DNA of 64,000 nt from contig CM120641.1 in assembly GCA_051362555.1 (NCBI GenBank), positions 38,136,401-38,200,400 on the forward strand, written 5' to 3'. Within the stretch, counting starts at the first letter, position 1. Each line of letters begins with the position of its first letter. Source of the DNA: Lingula anatina. Taxonomy: Eukaryota; Animalia; Brachiopoda. Made by a program: the position numbers and the translations under genes. The notes beneath the pieces were generated by a model. That model did not search any database, was not told the origin of the DNA, and saw only the letters and a program-made list of their open reading frames with translations. Of this stretch, positions 4,070-54,355 are shown piece by piece.

Positions 4070-4114
<45 letters not shown>

Positions 4115-13100: not shown

Positions 13101-16100
13101 AAAAAAGGTTCAAAATGTTTTTCAAAAAGCTTAAACATGGTGGCCAGTCATATTAAGGGAAACCTCTAAGCTACCGCAGGGACAGTATTGATGCACTGAG
13201 ATATAATATCCACAGCAACTTTAATTCTTATTTCTTTTCTTTACAGAATACTTCACCCCTACTGAATGCTGAAACATTTCCAGCAAGTGTTGCAGGTAAT
13301 TTGTGAAAAGGGCGTTTTTTTATTCTATACAAGTTCATTATTTACCCAATTTATTTGTAAATTAATCTATTTGCCATAAACTTTTTAAAAATAAGTTTTA
13401 AGATACTTTAGTATATTGAGTTTTTATTGGTTTCATTGTTTATAGCATCAAAGGAAGGGAAGAATGCCCGCAAGAGACGAAAGCGGCGTGAGATGGCTAA
13501 CAGGGCTGCTGAAGATGAATTGGCTGAGATTACAATTGAACAACAAATGTTAAAAGAAATTGGTTTAAAGAAACAAATGCAGCAGCAGGCTGCTTCAGGG
13601 AAGAAATCAAAGCAACCTATGACACTTAATATTGCTGATATGATTGATGCTTTAGAGGTACTTACTATTTCATTTTACTGATAACACTTCAGAGATGCCA
13701 GTGAATTATCGATAATTGAATAAAATTAAACCTCCATGCATTTTAATTATTTTGTAACCTTGAATTTCCTGCTGCCCTGTAGGTTTTTAAAAAATAACCA
13801 AAATATGATAAATTATATTTTAATTAAAATTTAATTAATTTTCCACCCAAGATGAAAATTCATTCCACTATTCATCTAAAATTATCCTGTTTAGAGTTTA
13901 CACAAGTCTGAGTATGACCAAATCTTGTGTTAATAGTATGATGTGGGTTGATTGTTTTTTTTTTTTACAAAATTTTACAAGTAAAAAGATGAGCATATAC
14001 ATTCTGTATAATGAGACTTGCTTTTTATTTTTAGAAACAGCAAGAGAAGGACAAGAATAAACAGCAGAAACACCCACCTTCAGTTGTAAAGCCAAAAGAG
14101 CTGGTAATTGGATTTAAAATGGTTTTGTATTAGTCAGTACTTATTGGGTGATATAACTTAAATGACATGCACATTGAATGGCTTTAAAAGGCAATTCTTT
14201 ACAGTTAATTCTTTAAGAACAGAAACATCAGGAGTGATTATGTCAACTTTGCGATATTGTGTGACCAGACAGTGTCATGATTTGCTATTATATGTCACAT
14301 TTTCCACATCATTTAGTGTATTTCTTTCCATCAGAACCCAGTCACTCCACATAATGTACTAGACAGCAGTGCCCCTTCTGTCAAAAGGGGAAAAGAGAGA
14401 GAAACTGCAAAGAACAAAAAGCCTAGTCCATTGAAAAAGGTTTGTTCAAAATCTGTCTCTTTATACTTTAAATAATATACTTAAAAAAATACTTGAGAAT
14501 ATGATTCAAAGTTGAGAATAAGGCAAGCATTCATTGCTAGAGAATGTTCATTAAAACTAACTTCTCTGAAAAAAATTAATGGTATGATTAACAGTTAGCA
14601 TTTAAATAATTTTTTCCTCAAGTATTTGTTCAAAAATCATTACTTAAAAGAGATTCATTTTCTCCTTGTCTGCTTTGGTGATGCACAGGTTATACTTAAA
14701 TGTCTTTCATGTCTTCTCCATTATTATTTATATACCAATTTTGATTCAAAACTGAGATAAATTTTTACTTAACTTGTTAGGTAATCTTGAAAGAAAGAGA
14801 GGAGAAAAAGAGAAATAGACTACTTGACGTTGGAGACAATGTTGGGTGAGTGTTGGCCTGATAAGATTTTATCAGTAGGGAGCCTTCATGTGCAACTTTC
14901 TAATATAAGCTCCCGAATGGTAATTACAGGGAATGTGCTTGGTCATTGCCATCTTTTTGTGGGGAAGGATGGGGGTGTTCACTGAAGCATTAAGTAACTT
15001 GATAAACCATTAGTGCTTACAGGTTGCATGTAGCACATTTTCTGAATGCATTAATAAACCCTCTAGTTATGTTTGTATGGTTCATATGAAAATATATATT
15101 GACCCCCTTCTTTTTTCAGTGCTGCATGTAGTATAGGAAATATGGGCATGTCAGTGGACAGTGACTTGTCCCAAGAAGGTAAATAAATTGACCATTGTAA
15201 CTAATGGACAACTACTTAATTTTAGAGCTACTTAAACATTAAAAAAAGTATGTATGCAGCTTGTAAAATTTTGACCACTGCCGTGATTTAATGAAGAAAT
15301 TATACTGCTGAAAACAAACCTTAAATTAATGCTAAAATACATTATGTTCCAGCTCTAAGTTGTAAAGGCTCTAGTTTTGAAAACAGTTTGGAGTCTGGCA
15401 CCCCTGCTAGTGCAGAACTTTCGCCTGTCAGCCAGACTTCTCCAATCTGCATCAGCCCCCCATCCCCAGGGGGAAGTCCTCTCAGCTCTGGTGTAAATAG
15501 TCCAACAGTGGGCACCAAGGCTCTAAACTCCAAGATTGTCTCTAAGATTCACAGCAGGAGATTCAGAGAGTAAGTACTATTTTCCTACATTGTATTAATA
15601 TGGCAGCTGCTTTGGCACAATATCTACTTACCATTTGCTATTTTTCAAGCGTCATGTGTTATGAAGGGGTGTGATTGCAATTGGCCTGGTGCATGTCCAT
15701 AAAAATTTTATTTGATTATATTCAGGTACTGCCACCAGGTGCTTGACAAAGAAATAGATGACTGCTGCACACAACTGTTACAAGAACTGGTGCGGTTTCA
15801 AGATAGGCTCTATCACAAGGATCCATCAAAGGTGAATTTACCTATCCTATTCCTGGGCTCTTTTGCATTACATACCTCTGCATTTCTGCCCGTTTTTTTT
15901 TTTTTTTTTTTTAATGCAACGTATGCAACTTAATAATAACCATTTTTTTCCGTTTAGGCTAAATCTAAAAGGCGGATAGTCCTCGGTCTTCGCGAGGTTA
16001 CCAAACATCTGAAACTCAACAAAATCAAAAGTGTGGTTATCTCTCCCAACTTGGAAAGGATACAGTCTAAAGGTTTGTACTTGAAAATCTGTTGTTGAAC

Positions 16101-17441
16101 TTTTTTTCACTTTGAACTTTTTATTTTTTATCAGTAGTATTCTTTGAGCTGTTATAAAAAAGTTATTTTTGGTAGTTTTTTTACTGTTTGATTTTTATAA
16201 ATCTAACAAATAAGTTTTATTTTATTTAGGTGGCTTGGATGATGCCTTGCACAACATCTTAGATCTTTGCCAAGAACAAGATGTACCATTTATATTTGCC
16301 CTGGGAAGAAGAGCATTGGGGCGTGCCTGTGCCAAATTAGTTCCTGTCAGTGTTGTGGGGGTCTTTAACTTTGAAGGAGCAGAGGTGATTAACATTTGAA
16401 ATGAGATCAACATTTTTGTCCATTAAGTCATAGACATTGTTTTTAAGTGTTGTTCATTTAGTTAAACTAACTGAACTGACTTTGAATAACTGAGACCTAA
16501 TATATTACTCTATTATTTTTAATGTTCTTCGCCATATTTATTAATCTGTGTACTATATATTTGATGTATTTCAGACTCACTTCCATAAATTGGTTTCCCT
16601 CACAGAGAAAGCCCGTCAAGTTTACAGAGAAATGGTCACAGTGTTAGAGAAGGAAATTCAAGAAAATCCCATGAAAACATCACCTACAGTTCCGCATTTA
16701 TATGCCCATATGGGGCACTCACGCACACCCTCTGCCTGCAGTGCAATCTCCTTCACAAGCTCCATTCTTTCAGAGCCCATATCTGAAAACTACCCCCAGT
16801 CAGAGCCAGAAACTGACAGTAGAGGGTACGAGGTCACAAAACATGGGGAGAATGGTAGCAAGCTGGACAACGAAATGCAAGGTGGGGATTCTGAAAAGAT
16901 CACTATTATTGAATCAATTCATGAGATTGATGAGGGGCATGAAGCTGACACAGAGGATCTGGAAAGCATGAAGCCACAAGTTCATAGAACTCCTACTCCT
17001 GTTGAGAGTGACAAGGGAGTGGAACTGGGTAATGCGGATGTTTCCGTGGAAAGTGATGATGGCTTACAAGACAGTGTAAGAGCTACAGACTTACCTTACA
17101 TTGATTCTATTCATTCTACAACGACAGCAACCACAGATAGTACAACAGATGTTGTATCACAGCAAACCTCAAATACTCTGAATAGTTGTGATGGTGAGAG
17201 TTGTAAAAGTTTCAAAGAAAACAAAAAAGAGATTAGGTCTCCTTCTCCAACTAAAGAGGCTTCCATTATAGATCTGAAGTCAGATCTCATTGAGGTGGAC
17301 CTGGGAAACTCGAACAAACTTAAAGCTATTAACAAAGACAGGATTGAAACATGGGTGGCAGATTGCATGCAGCAACTAAGCTTAGAGGGTGATGAAGATG
17401 ACACTATTCAGAACAATATCAAAAGTGACAGTGAAAAGTAG
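2583..17441 (+). CDS. SECISBP2L: Selenocysteine insertion sequence-binding protein 2-like (SBP2L-type), about 1170 aa, 17 coding exons
   Basis: Exons 2583-2612, 3758-3918, 4127-4194, 4451-4815, 10947-11082, 11399-12132, 13247-13295, 13446-13657, 14035-14103, 14335-14439, 14781-14845, 15120-15178, 15353-15569, 15726-15831, 15958-16072, 16230-16384, 16575-17441. All are GT-AG and total 3513 nt in frame. Motifs matching vertebrate SECISBP2L: LPRYMTNCYPFV, ILVDAAIQTDF, DSDSGYSSP, K-rich SID (KRGKERE...PSPLKKVILKEREEKK), KIHSRRFREYC, L7Ae domain (LGLREVTKHLKL...ISPNLERIQSKGGLDD...FALGRRALG...VSVVGVFN), GHSRTPSACSAISF, RIETWV. Confidence 0.95.
4070..4113. repeat. (ATT)n microsatellite
   Basis: About 14 ATT units just upstream of the exon 3 acceptor. 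Confidence 0.9.
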
Positions 17442-19044
17442 GTCAATTGAGATTGGCATAATATTGATTCTGGATTTCATTTTCATCTAGAAGATTAACT
17501 TTTTACTGCACTCGATACACATATGGTTATTATTGTCAAGAGTGTTGACATATCATCACTTTATTGAATAGCAGATTGAATTGTCAAACTAACAATGGGT
17601 AACTCGTTTTGAAATGAACATTTTCCTTTCTAGTCGTACTGGTATTTTTAAGCTGGAAATGTGATGTTTTTATTTTATTTTTGACCACCTGTCTCTAAAG
17701 CTGTAATGTCTGTACATATCTGTAGTGGTTTGGGGAAGGTTGAGGATTACTGCTGAATTTTAAGGCCCATCATCACACGATTATTGCCTTTGAGATAGTT
17801 ATTAATTTTGGGGAGGAATTATTCAACATTAGTATTTGCAGATATTTTATTCTAATTGCTCAAGTTTGCTACAGTTGTGATGGGAAAATGTGTATTTTAG
17901 TGCCAGGTATGTATTCTGATAAGTGTACATATCCCCTATATAACTGTGTGGTTTCTGGTTTATGTACTATTGAATGTACTCGGAACTGTGTTTTGATTGT
18001 AAAAACAATGATAGAAGTGAAAGCAATCTATTGCCAAATCATTGAATTGCTATGTATATTGGTTTGTGGATAAATGTAAATATATCAATACCATAGTACT
18101 TAAATATAAGCGGTGATCAGCAAGTTAAGTGATGAGAAGTTTGCTTGAATGTATATTTGTGAATTTGGACTTTTTAGTTGAAAAACATTTCAATATGTTT
18201 GTTAGGCTACAATGAATCTTATGCCTTGTATTCCTTGTCAGTGTTAAGGAAAATGTTCAAGGTATTTTGGATTTAAATACAGTTGTTATTTGTCATGTTC
18301 GTTTCTGAAGATGTGAATTGGCTTCAGTGGGTAAAAAGTATGAAGAATGTTCTGAAGAACAATTTTCAAGATTAAAAAGTATTTAAGTGTTTAAAAAACT
18401 TTGTTTTTAATTGATTTGTAAAATGTAAGTTTATTGCATTTTCATGTACCTATCTAAGCTGTGAACAATCACTATTTTTGGAGTAAGAAAAATTGTATCA
18501 TTATGTAGGGAAACCCAATTTATGTCTTGCCCAAAGTTAATTTCACTAAACATCCCTTGAAAACATAAGGTGCATGAAACTATTTTTAATTTCTCAAACG
18601 TGTGCACTGTAATTTACCATAAATGTAGATTCACTGGCTTTTGTCATGTTCAAGCACAGGAGGGAATTCCTCATTGCCTTTTCATGTCCACCAAAAGTAA
18701 ATTCTACCTATAGTATGAACCAAAATATCCAATCCTGCCTCTTGTTCATAAAATTGTATAATGCATACATGTAAGGGAGAAGAGAATTGAGGATTTAGAT
18801 AATATTGCAACTTCCTATCTAGCTACTGGAAATGTTCTTTTCCAGTGGAGAAGATTTGAAACCACGAGTCCTTGAAACAATTCTGTTCATAAGATTACTT
18901 CAGAAAGGGACAAAGTGATAATAATCTGTAATGTGCACAGTTGAAGTTTGTCTGCATTGAATCATTTTCCAAGTGGCATGCAGTCAAATGATAGCAAGTA
19001 CTGTAATTTAAAAGATTATTGTAGAATTTCCAAAAGCACAGGTA

Positions 19045-20006
19045 CAGGCCTTCCCAACTACCAGACTCGGCACCTACGGGTCCAGAATAAACCGGTATAT
19101 CTGACCACACTACCCGTTTTCAAGGTGTGTGTCAGATCGCATAAAAGAGTATCATACCCTACCACAAATTCTGTAAGCCTACCTGTCATCCGGGTATCGC
19201 GCCTCGTTTTCGTCAAGTAGGAGTCGCATGAATACAACAGACGACTCCCTCAATCAGGGGGTGGAAACGCGCTACTTATATGATTAAGACGAGCCTAGCC
19301 GTCAGTACCGGTTATTGTTTTGTGACCTTGAGGAGCAATTAGGTTTGGTCGTTGCGGCACGCATCAACAGTAGTTGAACTACCACACCTGGGTCTTTTGT
19401 TTTTGAAAACTGTTCACTCGTCATCGAGGCGCTTGTTCAAGACTACAGGCTGATATCTACTAGTACTACCAGTGGCTTCATTAGTAACGTTCCCACAATA
19501 CTTAAGTTTTCTGTCCGTGCGTACAAACCCTGAAAAAGGACAGCCTCGCTGACGAGAACAATGGACGTTTCTCACCCCTCTCTAGGATTACCCCTGCCCT
19601 CAATCTCGTCCATCCCGGTAGTCACAAGAATATTTAACCCCCGACAGAATATGCTTCTGCTATCAAAATTAGGTATACTTTTCTAAATTAATATATAAGT
19701 TTGCAAGTTCTTATTTACAAAACATCAATGGCTATGTCCGAACCTAAATTTTATGTTAAAAATTGCGGTACTGTCAGATTTGAGCATAAACAGAAAATTG
19801 CAGCAGCGCATGAATCTAGATGAGATGCACTACTTTCCAACCCCGCTTAGGATCATTGCTATCACATCGCGCACCTGGCAAAATCGGTGTGGTGGCTGAT
19901 ACTCTGTAATGCGATCTGACACACACCTTGAAAACGGGTAGTGTGGTCTGATAAACCGGTTTATACTGGACCCGTAGGTGCCGAGTCTGGTAGTTGGGAA
20001 GGCCTG
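19045..20006. mobile_element. Non-autonomous TIR DNA transposon, 962 bp, about 110-bp TIRs, 5-bp TSD (hAT5-like)
   Basis: Left TIR CAGGCCTTCCCAACTACCAGACTCGGCACC... (19045-19154) is nearly the reverse complement of 19897-20006 (...GTAGTTGGGAAGGCCTG). Direct repeat AGGTA on both sides (19040-19044, 20007-20011). No transposase ORF. Superfamily assignment is inference. Confidence 0.9.
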
Positions 20007-20029
20007 AGGTAGCAACGGACATGAGCCAG

Positions 20030-21103
20030 TTTTTTTTATGTACAGACACAGATGTGTCTGTACATATTGCCATCACCTGCGTCTGTCGTCGCCGATGGCA
20101 ATGCCGTCGCCGTGCACTTTCACTATAAACACGATAAGTGGAACACAGTTTTATTTTTTGGTTTTATATTTACAGAGCTGATGAATATTCATAAAACGCA
20201 GGTCAAGTTCGAAAATCAGCATGATCGGGCCATTATTGTATAAGTTATGCTGTTTTATCACTTTTCAGCATATATGCAACCCTGTAAACACATTTTAAGG
20301 AAAACCGATAGGCCTGTTGTCATGAAACTCACAAGAGTAATCAATCTTACTAAAATGCAGGTCAAGTTCGAAAATCGGCATGGTTGGGCCACTATTTTAG
20401 TAGTTATGCTGTTTTTTCCTTTTTTTCAGCATATGTGCAACACTGTAAACACAATATAAGAAAAACCGATAGGCCAATTGTCATTAAACTCACAGGAGTG
20501 GTCAATCTTACTAAAACGCAGGTCAAGTTCGAAAATCAGCATAATCGGGCTATTATTTTACAAGTTATGCTGTTTTTTCACATTTCCTCAGATTCAATTC
20601 TTAGGCATGTTAACAGTCTTATTATTTTACTAATAAGATACATTTAAATGTTTGTTTGACATTTCCTGCATCTTTACAACATTGTTAGTTGATTATGTAA
20701 AAATGATGGTAAACTTTTTATCGTGTATTGTGTAATAAAGTGTCACAAATGGAAATAAACTCATATCATTGCAGTTTGTCAGATTCAATCATCCACTATG
20801 TTCAGAATCTTAGAATGGAGGAAATTGGACATTTAACACTGTTATATTGATATTTTTCCAATCTCATCAATTTTCTTAGTTGATCATATAAAAATGGCAG
20901 TAAACTGTTCATTTTGTTTTATGTTAAAAAAGTGTTAAAAATGGAAATAAACCCATTTCAGAACAGTGTTGTCTTGTTAAAATTTGATGTTGAATTTGCA
21001 GTTTAACTTTATGTACTTTTGCATCAGAATTGGCAGTAGCCTATTTTGTGCATAGTTATTTCCTGCTTTTTGTCTGTACATTTGACAGCTTTGCTGCCTT
21101 GTT
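20030..21103 (+). mobile_element. Non-autonomous Helentron (HINE/DINE-1-like) carrying about 160-bp tandem repeats
   Basis: 5' T-run, sub-terminal repeat ATGTACAGACA within a hairpin (20037-20066), GTC-type micro-repeat, about 2.5 copies of a 160-bp unit (GGTCAAGTTCGAAAATC at 20201, 20360, 20521). 3' complementary sub-terminal repeat TGTCTGTACAT (21071-21081), then a short hairpin (21084-21098) and a T-run. Confidence 0.75.
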
Positions 21104-22318: not shown

Positions 22319-24028
22319 TTACCACTTAACCTTATCTTTGAATTCTTCTTTTACGCTGAATTTCTTTATGCTCTCATATAAAAAGATAATAGTAAAAGAA
22401 AAGGGCAGCGAGTGTGCCAGGCGAGCAGATAATCCCTTGTAAAACATGCTCATCCCCTCTTCCTTCCACAATGTTCTAGCTGTATAAATATATGTCTTCC
22501 TTTCAGTCTGAAAATAACAAAATGCTGTTAGATGACAGCCACAGTAAAGTAAGCAATTCATTTACACATATTACAGACATCATACAAATTGATTATGAAA
22601 TGCAACATACGTATCCATTTGTATAGTCATGGATGTCAACCATATGCTAATCTATATATATATTTATTTATCTATTTATTTGTCTGTTCTATGTTATAGT
22701 TACTAGTATTGTAATTGATTGTACATTTATGTGAAGGTGTTTGTCAATAAAGAATCTGAATCATATTTGTGTCTGTATCACAGCCACATATTACAGACAT
22801 TATCATACATATTCGTACCTGTACCCGGCAGTGTACCACAGCCTATAGTCAGATGGAAACTTTTTATTACTTGTTAAATAGACAGTTTGTGGGATCTTAG
22901 ACAGAAAAACAATATAATTACAGGCAATTTTTTCATAAATCTTCAATTAATTTTTGATGGAATTCAAACTGACTTTTGTGACAAGAAACTTGCATAATCC
23001 CACAAGTGAGTCATACTAGGGTGTTACCTGTATTCTAAGTCTAATTATATCTAAAACATTGGTAACACAGGTCGCACAGATACCAGCTGACAGTCCTGCG
23101 CCACACTGTATGCCAGTCATGGGGACTTTGGCAGAGAGGTAGTATGTCAATATGTCTGTAATAAGAAAGATAGAACGAATATTAATGAATACCACAAGTG
23201 ATACAGCCTTTAAAACCTTTTCAACATAAAAAAGAGACTTATGCATCATACTTTATACTGTGTGAAATATGTTTATGTGATATTAGATTCCTGTCTGCAA
23301 ACATTTCTAATAACAAGGCCATTTACTTTCCAGTACAATGCTGAGTCATTCATCCTAAATCCTATTGTTATAGGAATTGTTCAATTACTAGGCATCATAC
23401 CCGAGTTATATCCATAAATCCACCACCACAAAGCACTACTGGGTATGACCATACTCAAGGTTGCAAAATACCCTTTCCACAGGGCAAGTGGACCTTCTGA
23501 CCTCCATAGGTGCTGTATAATAGCCAGAGAAGGATAGCTTTGCTTATACACTTCAGGTGGAAGGGCCTTCATATGTGTCTTTTTAGTCTTGTGTCCTAGT
23601 TGTCTGTATTGCACCACATTATCAACTGGGACGCCTAAAGTTTGACCAGCTATGGCAGCGGAAGCACCACCAAGGCCAAAAAGCAAGTACCTGTTGTGTA
23701 AAAATTCAAACTTTTCCTGTGTTGATAGCAGCTGGCGTACATTCTCATATGTCCATATATATACTATACCAGGAATAATCTGTGCATTTTGTGACAAAAG
23801 TCCCCTGTACAACCCTCGTACCCCTTCTTTCCGAATTATCTTGCCAAAGGCATCAAGGGTGCCATTGTACACAGCAGTTTGAGTCTGTGCTTGAATCCTG
23901 GTCTTTATGAGAGAAAAAGGGTAAACTAATGCACGTGTAGTTATTCCAGATGCACAAATCAAAGGTATATATTTATAAAGGTTTAACATATCCAAACCTA
24001 TAACAGGTGCCTCGCTCAGAGCGTGCAT
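22319..24028 (-). CDS. SLC25A44: Mitochondrial solute carrier SLC25A44-like, 314 aa, 3 coding exons
   Basis: Exons 24028-23401, 23155-23028, 22507-22319 (945 nt, GT-AG). Three carrier repeats: YPFSLIKTRIQAQ...YNGTLDAFGKIIRKEGVRGLYRG; VPVDNVVQ...WRSEGPLALWKGY...PSSALWWWIY; TNVLDIIRLRIQ...LWKEEGMSMFYKGLSARL; C-terminal FKDKVKW. A 5'UTR intron is likely (acceptor 24074, donor about 24914). Confidence 0.88.
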
Positions 24029-24914
24029 TTTTCACCATGTCATCAATACAAGGGTATTTTATGCAACATGTACCTGAAAAGATAGCAAAAACTACACATG
24101 TACGTACTTAAGATGATTTCAAGAAATAAAGGACCTTCATTTTCAATATGTTTTTTTATTCTTGCAAATAAAATGACTTTTTCTTTACAAGCCCTCATAA
24201 TTTTAAGTCACACAATAAATTACAAGGATAAAATGGATTAAAGAAGCATACTTCCAAACATACTGTAAGAAAATACCAAATGTTAAAAAGTAATACATTC
24301 TGGCTATTCAACATTGTGGAATGGCACATTCATTGAAGAATTCTGACAAAAATTAGAAACTTACCCTATATATTGACTTTTTATATTTTCAACTTCTCTG
24401 TGCAGGAACACGTATACCATAGCCTGAAAAAATTAACCATATTAATCTGTGTCGCTTAGAATTAACTAAGAGAACACACGCACACACAGCTTGGGCATTA
24501 GGCTATTATTAGCGACAAAGAATAGGACTAGGGCTTGCAGGATCTGGATCCAAAGAGATAAATGAAGAGATGAGAATGCATCGTGAGCGCACCAAGAGAA
24601 AAGTGTAGAAAGGGGTTACACCCACGTTTGATTGACATTTGTCTCGGGGTAAAATTAAAACTGATCGGGCCTTCACGGAATAAAGACCTGTGTAAAGTGA
24701 GGCAAGACCGAATAAGAGAAGTCCCACAGAGTAAATTCCCAGAGGTCTTGATCTCTTGCGGTATCAAAACTCTTGCAGGTTCTCTGGCATTTCAAATTCA
24801 AGCGGCCATGACTATTCAGACACAGGCAGTTTCCCCATGTCTGCATTCGTATTCGCTGTCTTTCCCAAAAATCTACAAAATAATGCATCTCCAAACTGCC
24901 GGATGAAATCTTAC

Positions 24915-25167: not shown

Positions 25168-28100
25168 ATGGCGGCTGGACCGAAGGGTACGTAACTATGA
25201 TTATGAAGCATATTTATGCCTGGGAGGCATTTAGATTTTCGAGGACAAATTCAGTTACTATTTTTCATCGTACGCTTACTGTTATTGTATTTTTTACTTC
25301 TGGTCACTTAAGCAGGTGATAGCAAAGAACAATCCCCCACCTAATCTCTTGTCATTCTGACCCAATAAGAACTTACAAGTGTCAGTCAGTCCGTCAGTCA
25401 GTCATTCCGATAAATATGTCTTTTGATAGTGGTACGGACATGTTTAAGATAGGTTTAATTTTCAAGATGATACAGTTTTAATTGTCAGAATAATATTATC
25501 GATACGTAGTTACGTATATGTCGCTGTACTGGCGAGTAATGTTTGATAAAGATATAAGGTTCAAAGGTCAAGGTGTGTGAATGTCGAACCAAAAAGAAAA
25601 CCCATGTCTCTTCTCCTAAATTACGTTATGTAACATAATCGTGGCTGTGCTAGAGAATGGAAAAATGTACAGATACATGTTGTCACAATTATCACATTTC
25701 ACAGACTGCTGAAAAAATTGTATTTTTTGCTACTGATTAACGTGCACACTAATGTATTTGTTCAAATAAATCTGCCTAGCAAAACTAATCTTCTGTAACA
25801 TATTAATGGAGTCCATTGAATGTCACTACTCTCAAGATGTGTGATCTCTGAAGAAACTGTGGGTGTGTTGAAGGATTCAATGAAAGTAGACAGTCATTCC
25901 CAATTGAAGTACACTCAGTGATGCTTAATGACACTTATTTCATTTGTTCCTTAAAGCAGGAGTGAACACATATATGCTTTTTAGTATGTGCACACCCTAA
26001 ACTTGAAATGGAAGTGCTAGAGGTCAAAATTAAAGCCAAGATGTGAAAATTTGCAAAATGATATTATAATATATTTATAAATAAATCATACTAAATTAAG
26101 AAATTTGAAAAAAAAAACATTTTTCCTTCACACAAAATGGTTTTTATCATTATTATCATTATGAAAATAATATTTAAAGAGCTGTAGACTATGGAGAGTA
26201 AATTGTAACCAGTTATTAGTTAAACACGCCCATATGTAACAGCTGTTCTATCTATTTCTACATATGGTGTAATTCATCAGATGGAATGGATTTTGTTTTG
26301 GGAAAACACATATATATGATGTTTCCTTTTTAGTGCAACACATTTTCTTTGAACTTTGATATATAACATAATAATGATGCATGTTGCTGCATGTCTTACT
26401 GTATTAATTCAGGCTTAGTTTTTTAATCAAGTCATAGTGTATGTAACATGAGCCAGATATTGGGTAGGGACACTTTTTTTTTGCTTTTAGGTCTTACCCT
26501 TCAATACCTAAAAAATTCCAGTAATGAATGCTTATATTACTGGTAATAGATCTGTCTAATATGTTTTTTTTTTAAATAAATTTCAGACAATCCTTTCCCA
26601 TCCCACCTGCAGACATTGACTGTAGACTCCAAGGATTACAGGTACTATAGTTTACCAGCCTTTCAGGACAGCCGCTATGGTAAGTCCAATGTAAATAATG
26701 TATTACCCAGGTGTAGACGCATATTGTAATGCATTTAAGACTTGTTCATGCATAAAAAGTTATGTGTGGAAGAAGGCATTCATGAGTGAGAAATGTTTAA
26801 GTATCATGATGACCTTCACAGGTTGGCAAAGAAAGTGGAATGTTCTGGAAAACGTGCCTGTTGCTCCTTTTTATACATGGAATGGTTAGTAAACAAAAAA
26901 TAATAACAGTAGTGATGATGATGATGAAGAGATCAGAAAACTGCTATCAGAATGCTTAGATTTGTGATCCTGTTTTATTTATTTATTATTATTATTTTTT
27001 AATTTTTATTTTTATTTAGAAAAGCTCCCCTTCTCCATCCGTGTGTTGTTGGAATCTGCTGTGAGGAACTGTGATGAGTTTCAAGTTAAAAAACAAGATG
27101 TTGAAAATATCCTCAACTGGCAAGAAAACCAAGAGAAAAATGTTGAGATTCCATTCAGGCCAGCCAGGGTGATTTTACAAGATTTTACGTAAGTTTTCAA
27201 TAGCAAAAAATGCAAAGATTAATTTTAAAACTCTTACATAATTGCAAGTAATAGGCAACATCAAAACAAACCTGTGTGTGAATTTTTTTATTGTTATATT
27301 TAAAGAGCTTTTTATATGAATGGATTTGAACATCTCTAAATGGTTGGATTGTTACAGAATTTTGGTTTAAGTCAAATTTTGCAGATAAAATTTTTTTCGT
27401 CTTCTTTACTAGTGGTGTTCCAGCCGTGGTTGATTTTGCTGCAATGAGGGATGCTGTAAAGAGGCTTGGAGGAGACCCTGAAAAAATTAATCCCAAATGT
27501 CCAGCTGACCTGGTTATTGACCACTCAGTCCAAGTAGATGTAGCCAGAAGGTAGATATGTGCTGTGTGATTGAAAGAGTCATTTAGAGAATTGGTGTGTA
27601 GATATTTCAATCATGGGTGTCAGATGAGAAAGATTTTCTGAAAACAGTTTTTTATTCTTTTTATTCAAAACTTTTTGATTGTAAAAAATTGATTAAATGT
27701 AATTTTTAAATTTTGCCAATGTTCTTCTGTAAAATAGATTAATTTAATTCATAAATGTAAATCAGCACAACTCCATGCAATAGAAAAAAATGCCAGAATT
27801 CATGAGTTGCATGGGTGTGTAAACTGTTTATGGAATATTATTTTATACAGAGCGGTGATTTGATGCTTGGAATTGACAAGCTTTTGTTTGTGAAAATGAA
27901 AATATTTGGATGTGACAAACCACTACTTACGCTTATTTGGACTCACTGAATTATTATTATTAATATTATAATTCAATTTTTATATATATTGACAATATTA
28001 GAGAGGAACCATTCAAGTTTTACTTATTGGACTATGATTCATGTCATTACCTCCTTTTTTCAGTCTTCTCAATCGAAATTGTCCAAATCCTGGTGGCGGT

Positions 28101-31100
28101 GTCAGGAGCGGGTGTATCAGTCGGGCTGCCAAGTCTTCCTTGTGCAATATATGTTTAAACTCAGGCATCCCAGTTTCAGATGAACTTTGTCCATTTCACA
28201 ATCTAAAAAGCGAGGGGTTCGTACTTTGCGCTATTTGGAAATTTTTTTTCCCTAATATCACATAGCTCTGCATGGCTGGTTGTGTTGGTTCTACATTGTA
28301 GTCTGCCTGTCTTATGAAGTAAGATTACTATGCATTTCAAATCAGGTATATAATAGTTCAGCTTGTAAATATGCTGTGAACATTTTTTAAAATTTTGTGT
28401 GGTAATCTTACACCAGTGTCGGGTGGTATGTATTTGGTGGGACTGGTTTAAAGATATGCATGTGCTTTATATGTCATGTGTAGATTTAAAGCCAGTTTTG
28501 GTTTGGTGTTGTATTTTAATGCTTTATTATTTTAATACATTTAATAATATTACTTTGGAGAGTATTTATTTTTGCTTAAATGTAACCAATGGATGTTCTT
28601 TCTATCTTTTTGGTTGCAAAGGTTTGCCTGATAGGACCAAGTTTATTTGAAAAAAAAATTTTATAATTTTCAAGATGAGCTTGTGAAAATTCAATTTATT
28701 GAACTAAATTTTGAATTTGCATGACCTTATATAAATCCCCCTGTAGTGTCTAGTAGGTCGTGTTCTGAAAAACTACTTTTTCACCTGGAAGATTCCTTTG
28801 ACATTTGATTGACAACTCGATCATGTTGATAAACTGCAGGTGACTTTTTTTTATTTCATATTTGTTTTTCTTCTGGGCTAATGCCTTAGATGTGTCCACC
28901 ATATTTTTCTTTATAGTGAAAAAGTAAAACTGTATTCAAATAGACATTTTAACTTGATACTGTGTAGTCTTCATGAATGGCACAGAGTAAGCTTATTTAC
29001 CGCTGGTAAATCATTACAAGGGAACCTTACTAGACAAGGGAACCTTACTAGACTATGCTATAGGCTCTTAATGTGCTGACTTGCCAGTCTCATCAGGATT
29101 CCACCTAAAAATTGGCCTTTAAAACCTTATACTTCTTGGGGATTAGTTGGTGGTTTTAGGCATTATGCATTCAGTGTGCAGGACAAAATCAAGACATTTG
29201 TCAGTGTTTAGAGCAAAAATGTATCACAGATTTGTAAGCCCTTTTGTTGCAAAGTGATGCACATATATATAGGATGTCTTTACATATTCCCTAGTCCTTT
29301 TCTGTAAGAACAATGCCTTAAAATTGTTTTGATAATTTTATGGTAACAGAAAATCTTAAAATGATTAAAACATTGCTGTTTGGAAAAATGTGAAACTGGA
29401 GAAAATTTAACTTTGAATAATTAATAATCTTGTTTAAATCATCATGTACTTGGTAACATTGGTTTTGTGTTTACACATTAAGGTACGTGATCTTTTTAAG
29501 ATCAAACAGAGCTTCCAGGGGGCTGCCAAACTAACACTTCCACGTGCGAAAAGAATATCAAAATCAGTTGTGAATCTTATGAATTAATGTTAAAGAAGGC
29601 AGTCCTGTACTGCTTCACCTGATCTTGCCATCAACACCATGTGTCCTGCTTCTTAATTGAATTACTAATAATTTATGACAGTGGATTAGTTGTTATAAAG
29701 ATCCTGTTAATTGCTTATTTCAAAATACCCTGCATAAAATCCTTGGGGTTATTGTAGGTGGAATCTACTTTTTGCTGTTCTGTTGTATTTACTTAAGCAG
29801 CATTCACCTGTTGCTAATGGTTTTATCTTTACTGAATTTTTTTTACAGTTAGTAATCTAAAATAGGTAATTTTTTACTTCTGCATACTAAACTTTGCCTT
29901 GCTTTTATTGTGTTTGTAGTTTTTTTTTTTACCAAACACAAAATGATTGATCATGAAATATAGATGCATAATCTATGCACAATCAAAAAAGACAAAATTA
30001 TAATCCCAACCAATTATATAGCAATGTTTGAAATTCTTTTCCTGTAATATGATGTTTTATTTCTTTTTGATAACTCATGAAGCATAATAATGCAGCAGGT
30101 AGCTTCTCGCAGATTTAACTGTGAAATACTACGTTTTGCCCCTTGTTTGTTGTAGAAATTTTACAGCAGCATTGCTCTTTATTGAATTATGAATTAACCA
30201 GTTACTACATTTTCACTTTGAAAATGATATTCTTTTCCTGACATTGTATATTCATTTTCTGCTATTGACATATTGCAGCAATGTCTATTGACAGTTTTTC
30301 TTTGTTATGTTTAAAAAGAATTTAAACATTTTTTTTTATTGCAGTGCTACTGCTTTACAGAAAAACCAAGAATTGGAATTTGATAGAAACAAAGAACGAT
30401 TTGTTTTCCTAAAGGTCAGTATATTACTATCAACCAGACAAATTCTTAATATTGTGATTTAACAGTGGGAGTATTTGAAATGTGTGTGCAATGAGAGTTT
30501 ATACATTGATCCTCATGAACATCGTGCCCTTGATTTATTATGTATGCATACATGAATTTCAAAGATTGTTGTACAATTTTGTTGATTGCATTAAATCAGT
30601 ATTTTTCTTGAAGATAATTGCATGGTTGTTTGCCTTTATACTTCCTTCTGTGATAAGTATTTAATTATCAGCTGCTAATGGTTAAAATATGTCACTGATT
30701 ATCCAGTGGGGAGCCAAGGCATTGAAAAACATGCTCATAGTGCCACCAGGCTCTGGCATTGTGCATCAAGTGAACCTGGAGTACCTGGCCAGGGTTGTAT
30801 TTGAAGAGAATGGGATACTGTACCCTGACAGCTTGGTGGGCACAGATTCCCACACCACTATGATCAATGGGCTGGGAGTTGTTGGCTGGGGTATGTACAA
30901 CTTTTTGACCTTATTGAAAATTCTCCATCAAACTATTGACCTGGGTTTTGAATGTATAAATTGTAATTTATTTGTATTGCCTAGTATTCTTCAGTTATTA
31001 ATTTGTTTGTTTGGGCTTTTGAAAATCGCCAAGTAGTCTTTGAACAATTTTAAAGTGATCCATTTTCCTTAATAATCATTTAATTCAAGACTAAGAATTA

Positions 31101-34100
31101 AAACATGTCTTTGTTTATATGGATCAGAATTAGTGACATAAAGCATACATTTATACAAATATGTCTCTGTAGTCTATGTATGTAATGTCCATATTTTTGC
31201 TTATTTTTGTGTTTAGGTGTTGGAGGTATTGAAGCTGAAGCAGTGATGTTAGGCCAGGCCATCAGCATGGTCCTACCAAAGGTTGTGGGATATAAAATTA
31301 CTGGGCAGCTGAGCCCCTTGTGCACATCCACTGATGCTGTCCTTACCATCACCAAGGTAAGTCTTGTATCATCTTTAATGGTAGCAAAGGGGATTTAACT
31401 TATGAAATATACTTCAGCTCAAGGTAAGCATTTTAGTTCACATAGCAGCATTGAAATATGGGACAAGTATTGGAAGAAATCCAAATGCAAACTGTTTTGT
31501 ATTTTTTTTTTTTTTCATATGATAATTCCTTAACAACCCTTTTTCTTTAATGCTGTATATTTTAGCATCTGAGACAGATAGGGGTGGTGGGCAAGTTTGT
31601 AGAATTCTTTGGGGATGGTGTGGCCTCCCTGTCCATTGCTGATAGGGCCACAATCTCCAACATGTGCCCAGAGTATGGGGCCACCATAGGCTTCTTCCCT
31701 GTGGACCAGATGAGCATGACTTATCTGAAGAATACAGGTGCGGTATTAACCTGCATTGAAGTTGTAATCAGATGTTTTGTTCACCTTTATAATAGCCTCT
31801 TTCTCCCCAGCTCTCCCCCCTCATTCTCTCTCTCTTTTCTCTCTCTCATCTATTTTTTTCTCTTTCTCTCTCTCTCTCTGCAAAATTATAATATATCAAC
31901 CAGTCAAAATCATTTAGTTTCACTTCATTTATGTGGTTGTTTATTTGAAATAAACTAGAAAGTCATCTGCCTCCTTTTCAGCTCGTGATGAGAAAAGAGT
32001 TGCTCTTGTGGAAGCTTATCTGAAGCAAAACAAAATGTTCAGAAATTTCAATGATGCAAGTGAAGATCCAGTCTTTTCAGAGGTATGTACAGTTTGTTAA
32101 ATTATTCTGAGACCTTTTTCTTTGATGGAAAAACTGATGTCATAAGTAATTTGTTATTCATTGTTTGATGTGTAGATATGATTTCAAACTGCCAAAAGAT
32201 TTCCATGCAATAACAGACAAATCTCAGGGGCGGATCCAGAGATATTTTCTGACGGTCTTCCAAATTATTTTGTTGATCCATCCTCTTTTTTCACCGTCTT
32301 CCAACAGAAAACACCAGATACCCGTCAATGTAAACTTGAAAATCTGACCGTCTTCCGGAGAAGACGGCCTAAATCCGCCCCTGAATCTATTGCAGTATGT
32401 GTGAATTTTCAGATAGTTGAACTGAACCTAAGTGATGTGGTTCCATGCTGTTCAGGACCCAAGAGGCCTCATGATAAAGTGCCTGTTGCAGATATGAAGG
32501 ATGATTTCACCAAATGTCTCAGCAACAAAGTTGGCTTCAAGGTTAGCTTCTATGGAAACCTCATTATGTCTAATGAAGACACTTGGGAACTAAAAACCCC
32601 TTGAGTTGTATTTAAACATTTCTTTCTATACGAGACCTGACATTATACCTTGTATAAGTATTCAGTTGGTATATTTCAAAAACTAACAGTCACTTCCTTT
32701 AGATGTTCATAAAGTAAATCGCATTTTACCAACAGGGGTTTGCAGTTCCACAAGATAAGCTTGCTACCACTGTGCCAATGGTGTTTGAGGGAAAAGAGTA
32801 CACTTTGACTCATGGTTCTGTTGTCATTGCTGCTGTCACCAGCTGTACCAATACCAGCAATCCATCTGTTATGCTGGGAGCAGGTATGGATTAGTGGTTA
32901 TGTTCAGTAAGACTGAGACATAACAGGGTTTGAATACAGATAGAATACAGATTGCTCTTTATAGAATGCAATGTCATTATATGAACAGTGATGCCTTATG
33001 CAGTTCGGGAATGAACATGATCCAAGTAATATTTAATCTGTGTCATGTAAAATTCCAAGAAAACCTCTATTTGTTACTCTTGTGCACTATGGATGATAGT
33101 CTATACACACAGCATAACAATATTTTAGTCTGATTTTCCAGATTATTCTACCTCTACAATTTTGATTGAAATCAGAAATGATTGATCTGAACATTTTTTC
33201 AGGCTTGTTGGCTAAAAAGGCAGTGGAAGCTGGATTAAGTGTCAATCCATACATCAAGACAAGCCTGTCACCAGGAAGTGGTGTGGTGACCTGTTACCTG
33301 AAGGAGAGTGGGGTCATGCCATTCCTAGAGACCCTTGGGTGAGTAGAAACAAAGCTGAATCTTATTTCATGGTTCTTTTAATCATATTTGTATTGTTTTG
33401 TTGCTATTATATTTATGGTTATTTATGACAAATAATTTGATTTTCTTATTTTGATAATTAAACGGTAATTTATGTGATTCATGCAAGCGAGACACATTTC
33501 ATCATTTGTAATTCCATGTCTGTATTTCCAATGACAGTCACACCATTGCACTCAGTCATGCATATTTGTAATTGCAGGTTTGATGTGGTTGGCTATGGAT
33601 GTATGACCTGTATAGGAAACAGTGGACCACTAGCTGAACCTGTGTCACAGGCCATTGAAAAGGTGAGTACTTCCTTGAAGTCTATGAAACACCAGCCAAT
33701 GTGTTCCTCCTCATGATAAAATATAAAAGTTAAAGTAAAATGACTTTGGTAGCACTAAAACTTCAGACATGATTCCTTAGCTTTTGCTTGCAATTATAAT
33801 TTTTCATTTCTGGACATTTTCATTCAGAAGCCTGCATTATACAAGGATTTTTGGAAAGACTATTAAAAAATATTGTCCGTATGTTTTAACATCAACGAGA
33901 ACAGCTGTACATTACATTACATTACATCTGACTTACAAGTCACTTAAAATTCATATTCTTTAAACAACAAAAAAAATTTTGAAAAAAAAGTGCCCATCCA
34001 TATCTTCTATAACATTGTCATTTCAGGGTGATCTTGTTGCCTGTGGTGTTCTGTCTGGAAACAGAAACTTTGAAGGCCGTATCCATCCTCTGACCCGTGC

Positions 34101-37007
34101 CAACTACCTGGCCTCCCCACCACTGGTCATTGCCTATGCAATTGCAGGAACCGTGTGCATCGACTTTGAAAAGGAACCTCTTGGTAATTCTTCAGTCTGC
34201 AGGGGAAATTGTAGAATGTTTAAATGATGTATTTTAGAGAATTATAAAACGCTGTTATATTCAGCTTTTAACTTTGTAAAATATTTTTTAATGTTCTGTA
34301 TTAGCTTGCTACAAAAGTATTTCTTTATTTCTAAGTGAGGAAATTATAGATCCAAACTTGTTTTGTTTTAAGGCATCAATGGGGATGGGAAGCCAGTGTT
34401 CCTGAGAGACATTTGGCCATCAAGAGAAGAAATACAGGTGAGTGTTCTTGGCATATGTAATGGAAGGGTCTTTTTTGGAAGCCTTATGAAATAATAAAGG
34501 CCTGGGAATTAAAATGTGTTTGATATTTGATATTCTACTTTGGATTTTTTTTTCACATTTTATCTGTATCAATTTCAGTGAGATTTCCTTTATTATTTGT
34601 TAATTGAAAATTATTCTGTTTTTAGCAAATAGAGAGAAATGTTGTGGTGCCAGCTTTGTTTAAGGAGGTGTATTCCAGAATTGAGGTATGTCATCAACAA
34701 AGATTCTTATTTTTAGGGAAGTATTTTAAAGTATTTTCTCCTTAGTAAAACATTAGCCCACTTCTCTTATTTTCGGTTTACCAGAGTTCATGTTTTTATT
34801 CAGTGGGATGCAGTGACATTTAAAAGGAAGGAATATGACCTTTCATAAAAGTTGCTACCTTCACAAGATTTCAAGAATGTTTTATTTTCCTTGTAGGAAG
34901 GCACAGAACGCTGGAACTCCCTTGATGCCCCAGAGGGGATGCTATACCCATGGGACCCTAAGTCCACGTATATCAAGTCACCTCCATTCTTTGAAACTAT
35001 GGTATGTGCACCTTCAGCCATAGCTGATGAATTGATTTATTTAAAATATGTAATGGACATTAGGATAATAAATTTTTCACACTATAAAGTTGTCTGGACA
35101 TATATTTTTAATGCCAACTCTTGAAAGATGACATAGATTTCACTGGTGTAAATTTTTATTTGGCACTGAGGAATTGCTCAATTTTTGCCGCTTCAAGTGA
35201 GTGTGTATGCATGCTAACATGCATGTACTGGTATATGTGTAAATGGCACAATATAAAGAATTGTTCTCTTACCTTTACAGACCAAAGAACTGCCTCCAGT
35301 GCAGCCTATTACAGATGCCTATGCTTTGCTCAACTTGGGAGACTCGGTCACTACTGACCACATCTCTCCAGCTGGCAGTATTGCCAGAAATAGTCCAGCT
35401 GCAAGATACCTAGCAGGAAGAGGGTAAGTCCGGTATTCTTTAGTAAGCCAATCCTCCCAATACACTGCATTCCCAGAAACAGTCCATTTACTAGATACCT
35501 GACAGGTAAAAGGTGATTGATTGGTTTAAGAGAACTAGACCTTAGCGAATGCCCACATATATTTGTTACAATTTCTACAGTTTCAGAAAATGTTGCATTT
35601 GTTACACCTTTCAGTTTCAATTCAGTTTACTATTTTGTATTTACACATCTTTGTTATTGGCTTGAGATTCATCCTGGTGAATTAAAGTATACCTCATTAC
35701 TTTATGTATCAAGTTGTGACTGAAAATATTGTTGCATTTTTTCTGAACTGCAGACTGACTCCAAGGGAATTCAATTCATATGGATCACGACGTGGCAACG
35801 ATGCTGTCATGGCGCGTGGAACATTTGGCAATATTCGTCTGTTCAACAAGTTCATAGGGAAAGCTGGCCCTAAGACTGTCCATGTGCCCTCTGGGGAACA
35901 GGTGAGAATGGTTGAAATTTTTAAGAATAGCATGGAAATATTCGACACCAAATTTATTTGGCAATTGCTGGCAAAACTTTTTCAAAGAGATTTTGAGTAG
36001 TGTATCAAAGTGTCCATCATTTGTGATTTAAGAGTTCATATTATGGCAAGATGATGGAAAACAGTCTTTGAAATTTCTATAGGTCTTATAAGCACTGTGA
36101 TTGTATTCATTTTCAGATGGACGTCTTTGATGCAGCAGAGCGGTACCGCAGTGAAGGAAAGAACCTGATCATCTTAACAGGGAAGGAGTATGGGTCTGGT
36201 TCCTCCAGAGACTGGGCTGCAAAGGGACCCTGGATGATGGTAAATTGTTGTTTATGAATGGTATTAATGCTGATGAAGATTAGGTCAACAGTCAACATTG
36301 CACAAAGATGAGCCATCTTTCCAAGGTTGAAGATTTTTACGTATGATATAGTATTAACAATATGATTTATGTTTTGAGATGAAATGCAAATTATAGTGAT
36401 TTGCATCAAAGACAAAAGACCAAACCACATCCTTTTCTATTCACAGGGTATCCGTGCGGTAATTGCAGAAAGTTATGAACGCATTCACCGCAGTAACCTG
36501 GTCGGGATGGGTATCATCCCTCTCCAGTACATGCAGGGTGAGAATGCAGACTCTCTGAACCTCACCGGAAAAGAGACATTTACTATTGACCTGCCACAGG
36601 ATCTTGCCACTGGCATGGTTGTTGATGTCAAGGTACTTGTCTTTAAGAAAATTGTTTCACCAGTGAATAAGGCAGCATTTGAATGGACAGTTGTATTCCT
36701 GTTAGAAAAAGATGATTTTGTAACTATCAAATTGTCTTAAGGCTGTCAGAGTGGGCTCAGTTAAGAATTGCCATTTGTACAATTATTTGCTCAACTTGGT
36801 AAAAATTTTGAAAAATGAAGAATTAATGGAACAATTATTGTAAGCGTATGTTATTTTGAGTAATTTCTAACTACTTTGACATTTTCTGTTCTCCAGGCAA
36901 GCAGTGGCACCACATTTAAAGCCCTAGTGAGATTTGACACCGAAGTGGAACTGGCCTACTTCCGCAATGGAGGCATACTGAACTACATGATCCGTGGAAT
37001 GCTGTAA
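25168..37007 (+). CDS. ACO1: Cytosolic aconitate hydratase / iron-regulatory protein (probable pro-ortholog of ACO1 and IREB2), 893 aa without and 944 aa with the cassette exon
   Basis: Exons 25168-25186, 26587-26679, 27020-27188, 27413-27550, [28064-28216], 30345-30414, 30707-30890, 31217-31356, 31566-31737, 31982-32082, 32413-32541, 32736-32883, 33203-33338, 33578-33662, 34027-34183, 34373-34437, 34626-34685, 34897-35001, 35281-35423, 35754-35901, 36117-36239, 36447-36632, 36897-37007. Motifs: [44 protein letters not shown], Fe-S cysteines ([21 protein letters not shown]), [45 protein letters not shown]. Confidence 0.97.
28064..28216 (+). CDS. Cassette exon encoding an IRP2-like Cys-rich insert (51 codons, phase 2-2)
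   Basis: Acceptor CTCCTTTTTTCAG and donor GG|GTTCGT. Translates as (S)[50 protein letters not shown](G), with PNPGGG and LCPFH as in the vertebrate IRP2 insert. Confidence 0.85.
29016..29051. repeat. Perfect 18-bp tandem duplication
   Basis: ACAAGGGAACCTTACTAG twice. Confidence 0.85.
32225..32383. mobile_element. 159-bp MITE in an ACO1 intron, 5-bp TSD
   Basis: TIRs CAGGGGCGGAT...ATCCGCCCCTG, flanked by AATCT on both sides (32220-32224, 32384-32388). Internal repeated (C/G)GTCTTCC motifs. Confidence 0.85.
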
Positions 37008-46072: not shown

Positions 46073-47020
46073 AGAAATTAACAGAATTAACACGATTATG
46101 ATTTATAAGAATCAGTCTACTTTCATGCACAAGATTCGTCCAATTTTATTCTAAAACCATTTTTTGAACTTCAATATTGGCGGCTTGCTTATAGTTTTCC
46201 CTTTACGCGTGTCAGAGGGGAGCCTGTTCCAAATTCTCCCAGTTCTCTAATTTTATTTTCATCTTTTCTATTTTTCAAAATTTATAGAACGTTGGCTGAA
46301 AATTAACCTGCAGAAGTCTATTTTTAAATTAAAATTGCATCAAATGCGTCATAAACGATCGTAATTATATTATTCATTTATTTCAACATAGTGTACGTTT
46401 TAAACGACACCATCATTTTCTACGTCTGATAAAGTTCTTGGTCTTCAACAATCTGGATAACACTCACCCCATGAAATCATTGGGTGAGACCAGATCGACG
46501 TGTATCAAATAGAGACTTACGCTTTCATCATGCCAAACCTAATGATTAAAAACGGTCTACTTTAACCTTGCAACAGAGGGTTGCATTACACAGTATGAAA
46601 TCAAAACCAAGATTATTCACAATCCCAACCCTTTGTATTATCATATATTATCACATTCCCTACCACAGCATATTATTCTGTATCCTGGTGAAGGTTAATG
46701 ACGAAATGCCATCTGTAATTTTCTTATCGCATTAAGATTGATCTTAGCCAAGCGTCAGAAATGTTCTTACAGTGCATGACCGAATACCATGCTCCAGCAA
46801 CAGAAAGCGAAATTCATTGCATGCTTTACGTTTATTCCTGTGTCTATGTAACTAACTGACATTTGAAAATAAAAGAACAAAATTCTATTTCATTGTATCT
46901 GTGTTCAGTGTTTTATGTCTTTTAAGACTCATAACAAGCCTCCACAGCAGATCTTCCAGTCTCTTTTAGACATTGTCAAAAAGTGCCTATCAAGTGGAAA
47001 AAGGAGCCATTTCAGTCCAT

Positions 47021-54355
<7,335 letters not shown>

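Follow-up and report, generated by a model that had tools for sequence, protein, structure and literature searches.

The window analysed here is a stretch of 64,000 nucleotides from the brachiopod Lingula anatina (contig CM120641.1, positions 38,136,401 to 38,200,400). It carries a gene for cytosolic aconitase, i.e. an iron regulatory protein (IRP), in which a 153-nt exon encodes a segment resembling the insert of vertebrate IRP2 (gene IREB2). Based on annotated isoforms from 24 assemblies and on the register of conserved motifs, we propose that an optionally used, frame-preserving cassette exon of an ancestral IRP1-type gene became the IRP2 insert, and that the loop it encodes would hold a cofactor. 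We assign a probability of about 0.72 to this reading as a whole.

An exon walk yields 23 coding exons (2835 nt) from an ATG at 25168 to a stop codon ending at 37007, with GT-AG ends at every intron, and the gene encodes a protein of 944 amino acids (aa) with the cassette exon and of 893 aa without it. A protein search with the upstream exon, of which the best 120 of 4702 matches are listed and the isoforms were taken from their clusters, gave a 100% match to cytoplasmic aconitate hydratase of Lingula anatina (P0004), which maps along the window. P0122 (XP_013409788/9, 944 aa) contains the included form without a single mismatch, and P0004 (XP_013409790/1, 893 aa) the skipped form; both isoforms are therefore already in public annotation, and RefSeq models of isoforms draw on RNA-seq. 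Both introns around the cassette exon are in phase 2, the upstream exon ending AG|GT at 27550 and the next constitutive exon beginning at 30345. The acceptor, ...CCTCCTTTTTTCAG, ends at 28063 (AG at 28062-28063), and the donor reads GTTCGT from 28217. Thus, the exon has the properties of a cassette, namely GT-AG ends, a length divisible by three, equal phase on both sides and both forms on record. GC content is 0.46 in the exon versus 0.28 and 0.31 in the flanking introns, and no other intron of the coding region is as long as the downstream one.

An earlier note on this DNA, made from the letters alone, had placed an exon of 153 nt at 28064-28216, with AG/GT borders, phase 2-2 and products of 944 or 893 aa, and both the sequence and the exon walk confirm this. 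It had also counted five cysteines, a CxxC and two Cys-Pro motifs in the insert. All are present (Cys146, 157, 167, 170 and 182), with only the C-terminal Cys-Pro conserved, position 146 being Ala, Ser or Thr in relatives. Its description of the remaining protein as IRP1-type, with three Fe-S cysteines and GSSRDW, agrees with our motif check. The long form keeps DHS, DSH, NRNFEGR, SRRGN and GSSRDW together with the Fe-S cysteines C493, C559 and C562, and the insert sits in a protein that retains aconitase residues altered in IRP2 (NRN versus NKN and GSS versus GNS in the profile alignment). Because every IRP1 catalytic and Fe-S motif checked is retained, the long form is an IRP1-type protein with an IRP2 insert, not an IRP2. 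Of the traits that set IRP2 apart, it has the Cys/Pro-rich domain 1 insert on its own exon and lacks the loss of aconitase residues; absence of an insert after DHS, a trait of IRP1, is true of the 893-aa isoform and false for the 944-aa isoform. The best structural relative is IRP1/ACO1 (2B3X, 3SN2), with which the short isoform is colinear and has the three Fe-S cysteines and the catalytic motifs in common. The vertebrate ACO1 sequences compared are without the insert, whereas the Lingula gene can add it by splicing.

Table 1. Features of the aconitase gene around the cassette exon, and other features of the window.
Feature	Position	Strand	Remarks
Cytosolic aconitase / iron regulatory protein gene	25168..37007	+	Exon walk against P0122 and P0004; Pfam Aconitase (PF00330) and Aconitase_C (PF00694) domains
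Upstream constitutive exon	27413..27550	+	138 nt; carries the active-site DHS motif; ends in phase 2
Upstream intron	27551..28063	+	513 nt; GT-AG; single TGCATG at 27808
Cassette exon	28064..28216	+	153 nt; phase 2-2; adds 51 residues (~141-191 of the long form)
PNPGGG codons in the cassette exon	28083..28100	+	P147-G152; motif in the alignment and in human IRP2
CxxC-x11-CPFH codons in the cassette exon	28143..28199	+	C167, C170, C182, H185; candidate 3Cys-1His metal/heme site
Downstream intron	28217..30344	+	2128 nt; TGCATG at 28269, 28457 and 28718
Downstream constitutive exon	30345..30414	+	70 nt; starts in phase 2
Multi-exon gene with L7Ae domain	3700-17440	+	
Repeated stretch, first copy	~18945-19250	+	Peptide nearly identical to that of second copy
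Repeated stretch, second copy	19819-20163	-	
Mitochondrial carrier gene (PF00153)	~23040-24031	-	Head to head with the aconitase gene, ~1.1 kb from its ATG
Fatty-acid hydroxylase/sterol desaturase exon	45102-45431	+	
AAA ATPase gene	~47000-54000	-	

Optional use and distribution across animals

Named long and short forms occur together in 24 assemblies (brachiopod, annelid, bryozoan, 11 bivalves, hemichordate, five echinoderms and four amphioxus), corresponding to 22 species and two hybrid amphioxus assemblies from seven lophotrochozoan and deuterostome phyla; a B. belcheri pair was left out because its forms stem from different assemblies. Every long form equals the short form plus one insert at the identical site, i.e. 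an exact nested cassette. The insert measures 36-63 residues in 23 of the 24 pairs and 152 in the bryozoan. P[ND]PGGG and CP[FY]H are found in all 24 inserts and CxxC in 22, and the spacing from the histidine to the [KQ]NQ flank is 12 residues without exception. Conservation of the peptide in relatives, on which the earlier note had staked its proposal beforehand, is borne out by comparison with 500 shuffles, where the Lingula insert reaches z values of 9.0-15.9 with ten of the eleven relatives compared; with the 152-aa insert of the bryozoan z is 4.1, exceeding all shuffles but one. The latter insert (Watersipora, P0150) holds ten cysteines and keeps both end motifs, as do three genomic fragments (P0209, P0214, P0216) with 75-84 residues between the motifs and Ser-rich runs.

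The phase is likewise conserved. In Ptychodera and Amphiura, Ser at the junction of the short form is replaced by Arg in the long form, the change expected if a phase-2 intron splits an AG|N codon. A profile of 14 inserts retrieved 22 proteins among 1.84 billion representatives; 19 of them have both motifs and no aconitase flanks and look like gene predictions that continued into introns of animal genomic DNA. Behind the exon, the translation of all 19 agrees with a phase-2 donor, fitting GTxxGT in 18 and stopping at the donor in one, at a chance of ~0.06 each. The other three matches (P0212, P0215, P0217) do not carry both motifs and were dropped. Taken together, the pairs, the junction residues and the read-through donors therefore indicate that the exon, its phase and its optional annotation are common to lophotrochozoans and deuterostomes. 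Among the matches listed, only a long model is seen for a chiton, the pearl oyster, Tegillarca, Mactra and Diadema setosum, and only insert-free forms for two Patella species and two beetles, no systematic test of loss having been made; the vertebrate ACO1 fragments in this set are without the insert. A sponge IRP1 alignment with the rabbit protein spans 902 columns, too few for these sequences to contain the insert (PMC7034838; papers cited by PMC number are drawn on for part of their text here and below). Annotated oyster models include a third isoform, X3 (P0128, P0133, P0135; 837 aa), which keeps the insert and lacks ~104 N-terminal residues. A metagenome scan with the exon gave a single locus (L001) from 600 pattern matches, which was rejected as a chance match of 66% GC.

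In the ark clam a 942-aa cDNA, SbIRP-1, has been cloned, the protein binds the iron-responsive element (IRE) in an electrophoretic mobility shift assay, and no IRP2 was found in the genome (PMC8947174). SbIRP-1 is the long form, which shows that the exon is indeed included in a mollusc and that RNA binding survives its inclusion. The authors noted that vertebrate IRP1 lacks Ser138-Gly189, and Lingula XP_013409788.1 is among the proteins of their tree; the portion of that text covered contains neither 'isoform' nor 'splic' and draws no connection between the segment and IRP2 (PMC8947174). The 24 annotated pairs and the cloned clam cDNA support the optional inclusion claimed earlier, and the cassette exon is, in our judgement, very probably used optionally.

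As for its control, weak splice sites were considered as a mark of an alternative exon and discarded, since the donor ranks 7th weakest of 22 and the acceptor lies above the median. Three copies of TGCATG, which we take to be an RBFOX-type motif, lie within ~510 nt after the exon (Poisson p ~0.002 for three in 600 nt, calculated post hoc), and three copies occur in just ~0.1% of the 520-nt windows of the region. Over the whole window the motif is not enriched (53 observed versus 47.4 expected), and we treat the three copies as a post hoc lead for RBFOX-type control, not as evidence. Hemocytes of the clam contain a protein of the size of the long form, which speaks against an exon restricted to nerve or muscle. 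Rfam gave no match in the window.

Relation to the vertebrate IRP2 insert

The alignment of P0122 with human IRP2 (6vcd_A) runs through the insert as one stretch, while those with the IRP1 structures of human (2b3x) and rabbit (3sn2) are split in two at the insert, and a profile built from 20 long forms behaves likewise. Human IRP2 has 16 residues from DHS to PNPGGG (16-20 in invertebrates), its CPFH occupies C201-H204, and 12 residues separate H204 from K216 of the KNQ flank, as in invertebrates. In the insert alignment PNPGGG is invariant or nearly so, and insert positions C42, P43 and H45 are invariant in 14 of 14 rows. The chance of finding both motifs is ~8e-8 anywhere in a Cys/Pro/Gly-rich 73-mer and ~9e-11 in register, figures that assume independent residues and apply to motifs chosen with knowledge of the claim in the earlier note. 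The 73-aa insert of IRP2 is encoded by a separate exon (PMC3048577). The two inserts thus have in common the site in domain 1, an exon of their own, PNPGGG near the start, CPFH near the end and a composition rich in Cys, Pro and Gly. They differ in that the IRP2 insert has 73 residues and a C-x3-C-x22 arrangement, whereas invertebrate inserts have 36-63 (152 in the bryozoan), carry CxxC-x11 and are annotated as optional. Judging by site, end motifs and spacing, we are highly confident that the cassette exon and the exon of the 73-aa insert are homologous.

This homology had been put forward in the earlier note, and the common site together with both end motifs in gap-free register with the flanks supports it. 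The comparison of the peptide with IREB2 that the note had suggested gave a divided answer, i.e. end motifs, site and spacing match, while the insert-only peptide and profile miss IRP2 and the middle does not align. Its further claim, an origin before vertebrates, is supported by the occurrence of the insert in both lophotrochozoans and deuterostomes. It is thus very likely that the 'IRP2-specific' exon existed as a cassette before vertebrates arose.

Annotation of this exon as optional in seven animal phyla makes it likely that the insert started out as a switch in splicing. The exon would have been present and skippable in the protostome-deuterostome ancestor; upon duplication in vertebrates IREB2 would have kept it and ACO1 lost it, so that two splice forms became two genes. 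We infer this partition as the simplest reading. In the general model of subfunctionalisation, ancestral splice forms are partitioned between gene duplicates. The IRPs resemble this in that outgroups would have one gene with two isoforms and vertebrates two genes that each resemble one isoform; they differ in that only the exon would have been partitioned, the enzyme loss of IRP2 and its turnover via domain 4 and FBXL5 being separate changes. No IRP2 is reported for the ark clam (PMC8947174), Drosophila (PMC6884552) or sponges (PMC7034838) in the text portions covered. The two IRPs of lamprey, named in the title of a reference cited in PMC4693282, agree with a duplication early in vertebrates.

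In reviews, the 73-aa insert counts as the mark of vertebrate IRP2, with a largely unknown function (PMC2854138, PMC3048577). The invertebrate exon is real and conserved, and its link to this insert apparently unremarked, as no paper connecting that segment with the IRP2 insert or with splicing was found in the full-text literature, a scope that leaves aside subscription journals, figures and supplements. A prior remark may exist, because subscription journals, the home of many invertebrate IRP clonings, lay outside the search. In the parts covered, a razor clam paper (PMC12896564) contains none of 'isoform', 'insert' and 'splic', and PMC4112806 and PMC11587613 hold nothing further on the link.

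Possible function of the loop and alternative readings

The loop begins ~10 residues after the active-site DHS motif. Its core has the form C-x2-C-x(8-17)-C-x2-H, with CxxC in 41 of 44 distinct inserts and a spacing of 11 in 27 of these 41, and the conserved Cys-Pro with a nearby His corresponds to the sequence of a heme regulatory motif. Cys/His patterns with four such ligands point to a metal site more than to a linear motif. The included exon would add a loop, predicted to be flexible, whose CxxC-x11-CPxH core may bind Zn, Fe or a 3Cys-1His [2Fe-2S] cluster, or heme at the Cys-Pro; the bound loop would tune the response of the protein to iron or redox state. We give such a cofactor role a somewhat better than even chance. 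As the loop starts so close to DHS, its likeliest effect would be a shift in the balance of aconitase and RNA-binding activity or in redox sensitivity rather than that of a degron, and the degron was set aside as a function, the vertebrate insert being dispensable for degradation (PMC3048577, PMC2267205). For the same reason, and given the retained IRP1 motifs and the disputed heme binding, the 'heme/redox-sensing IRP2-like isoform' of the earlier note was overstated (PMC3048577, PMC2267205). In IRP2, iron binding has been proposed at C168/C174/C178 and heme binding at C168 or C201 (PMC2267205). More tentatively, the IRP2 insert may be the remnant of a bilaterian-age, splicing-controlled 3Cys-1His metal/Fe-S sensor beside the aconitase active site, with human C174, C178, C201 and H204 as the surviving ligands; invertebrates would turn this sensor on or off through exon choice within a single bifunctional IRP, and vertebrates would have made it permanent in IREB2. 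If so, this would give the IRP2 domain a defined cofactor and a natural plus/minus test pair.

Several observations weigh against the proposed history and function. The evidence for optional use consists of annotation, a single cloned cDNA and a single contig of transcript length (P0021), and the 24 pairs are not independent (five oysters, four mussels, four amphioxus). If the exon were in effect constitutive, or the skipped form noise, with the short models as annotation by-products, one would understand the ordinary strength of its donor and acceptor, the several species with a long model only among the matches listed, and the clam study, in which only the long form was cloned and one band was seen in hemocytes (PMC8947174). 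This is improbable, however, as both forms are annotated in 24 assemblies, the GenBank annotation of Owenia included, an insert-free transcript-length contig (P0056) is 90% identical to the mussel short form, and two Patella species show the short form alone among the matches listed. With regard to homology, searches of the PDB with the Lingula insert peptide and the insert-only profile (E<=10) did not find human IRP2 and gave only chance PGGG matches, e.g. tau. Word-limited searches of longer proteins returned no IRP2 either (none of seven candidates scored for the insert peptide; two of 17, both urchins, for the sea urchin insert region), and there is none among the 22 insert-profile matches. 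The insert middles do not align with IRP2 (low posteriors), human IRP2 having C174-x3-C178, 22 residues before C201, and not CxxC-x11. Such misses and differing middles would be expected of inserts that arose independently at the same tolerant loop, but the ten motif residues common to both ends stand in exact register with the flanks, at a chance of ~1e-7 or lower, and both inserts are separate exons, which makes an independent origin extremely improbable. The core, finally, is more similar to IRP1 than to IRP2 (1457 versus 1278 bits for P0122), and a neighbour-joining tree groups the invertebrate proteins with vertebrate IRP1 and places IRP2 outside (PMC8947174). Both facts would suit a homologous, ancestral exon combined with an IRP1/IRP2 split older than that of protostomes and deuterostomes, the invertebrate gene being a true ACO1 orthologue; invertebrates would then have lost IRP2 and kept the exon optional in ACO1, and vertebrate ACO1 would have lost it later. 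This order of events seems unlikely to us: it needs repeated losses of IRP2, which is reported neither for the ark clam nor for Drosophila or sponges (see above), a faster-evolving IRP2 freed from enzyme constraint would yield these same distances and this neighbour-joining tree, and the two IRPs of lamprey fit an early vertebrate duplication.

Work on IRP2 also bears on the cofactor. The cysteines named above and the whole insert are dispensable for iron-dependent degradation, which needs domain 4 (PMC2267205) and proceeds through FBXL5 (PMC2267205, PMC2854138); the degron idea was rejected experimentally and the insert called unstructured (PMC3048577). Heme bound only a cleaved form of IRP2, according to Dycke 2007 as cited in PMC2267205, where heme binding is disputed. 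The AlphaFold model of the insert (pLDDT, the predicted local distance difference test score, 58.2) is too weak to use, and Foldseek with this weak model found no fold match, its single match having an E value of 8.6. The full-length model (pLDDT 54.2, residues 116-178 below 50) is likewise too weak, Pfam has no family for the insert, and the ESM Atlas gave no lead (best feature score 0.88, for aconitase fragments; best template modelling score 0.40). With the same ancestry and splicing, the loop could be cofactor-free, i.e. a disordered docking or modification site whose short motifs are linear binding motifs serving partner binding, localisation, phosphorylation or proteolysis. Besides the weak model, the unstructured vertebrate insert and the heme result, this account would accommodate the length range of 36-152 residues and the finding that the insert, its function largely unknown, is needed for an effect on tumour growth separate from IRE targets (PMC2854138). 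The four potential ligands kept in 41 of 44 distinct inserts, with their preferred spacing of 11, look more like a metal site, and we regard the docking loop as possible yet doubtful.

If the insert descends from an ancestral cassette exon, the origin of IRP1 and IRP2 would have to be retold as a splice switch that turned into two genes. The invertebrate sequences point to the residues that matter, namely PNPGGG, CxxC, CPxH and the fixed spacing to the flanks. On an aconitase-competent scaffold, the two isoforms of oysters, urchins and amphioxus form natural pairs distinguished by nothing but the loop, which renders its function testable. Studies of invertebrate 'IRP1' that used one primer pair or one clone may mix two proteins.

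Neighbouring features

The gene with an L7Ae domain presumably resembles SECIS-binding protein 2. SECISBP2 and SECISBP2L share their human chromosomes, 9 and 15, with ACO1 and IREB2, which offers a lead for paralogon synteny. We take the AAA ATPase gene to be fidgetin-like. The two opposite-strand stretches with a nearly identical peptide are probably the inverted ends of a non-autonomous DNA transposon of ~1.2 kb.

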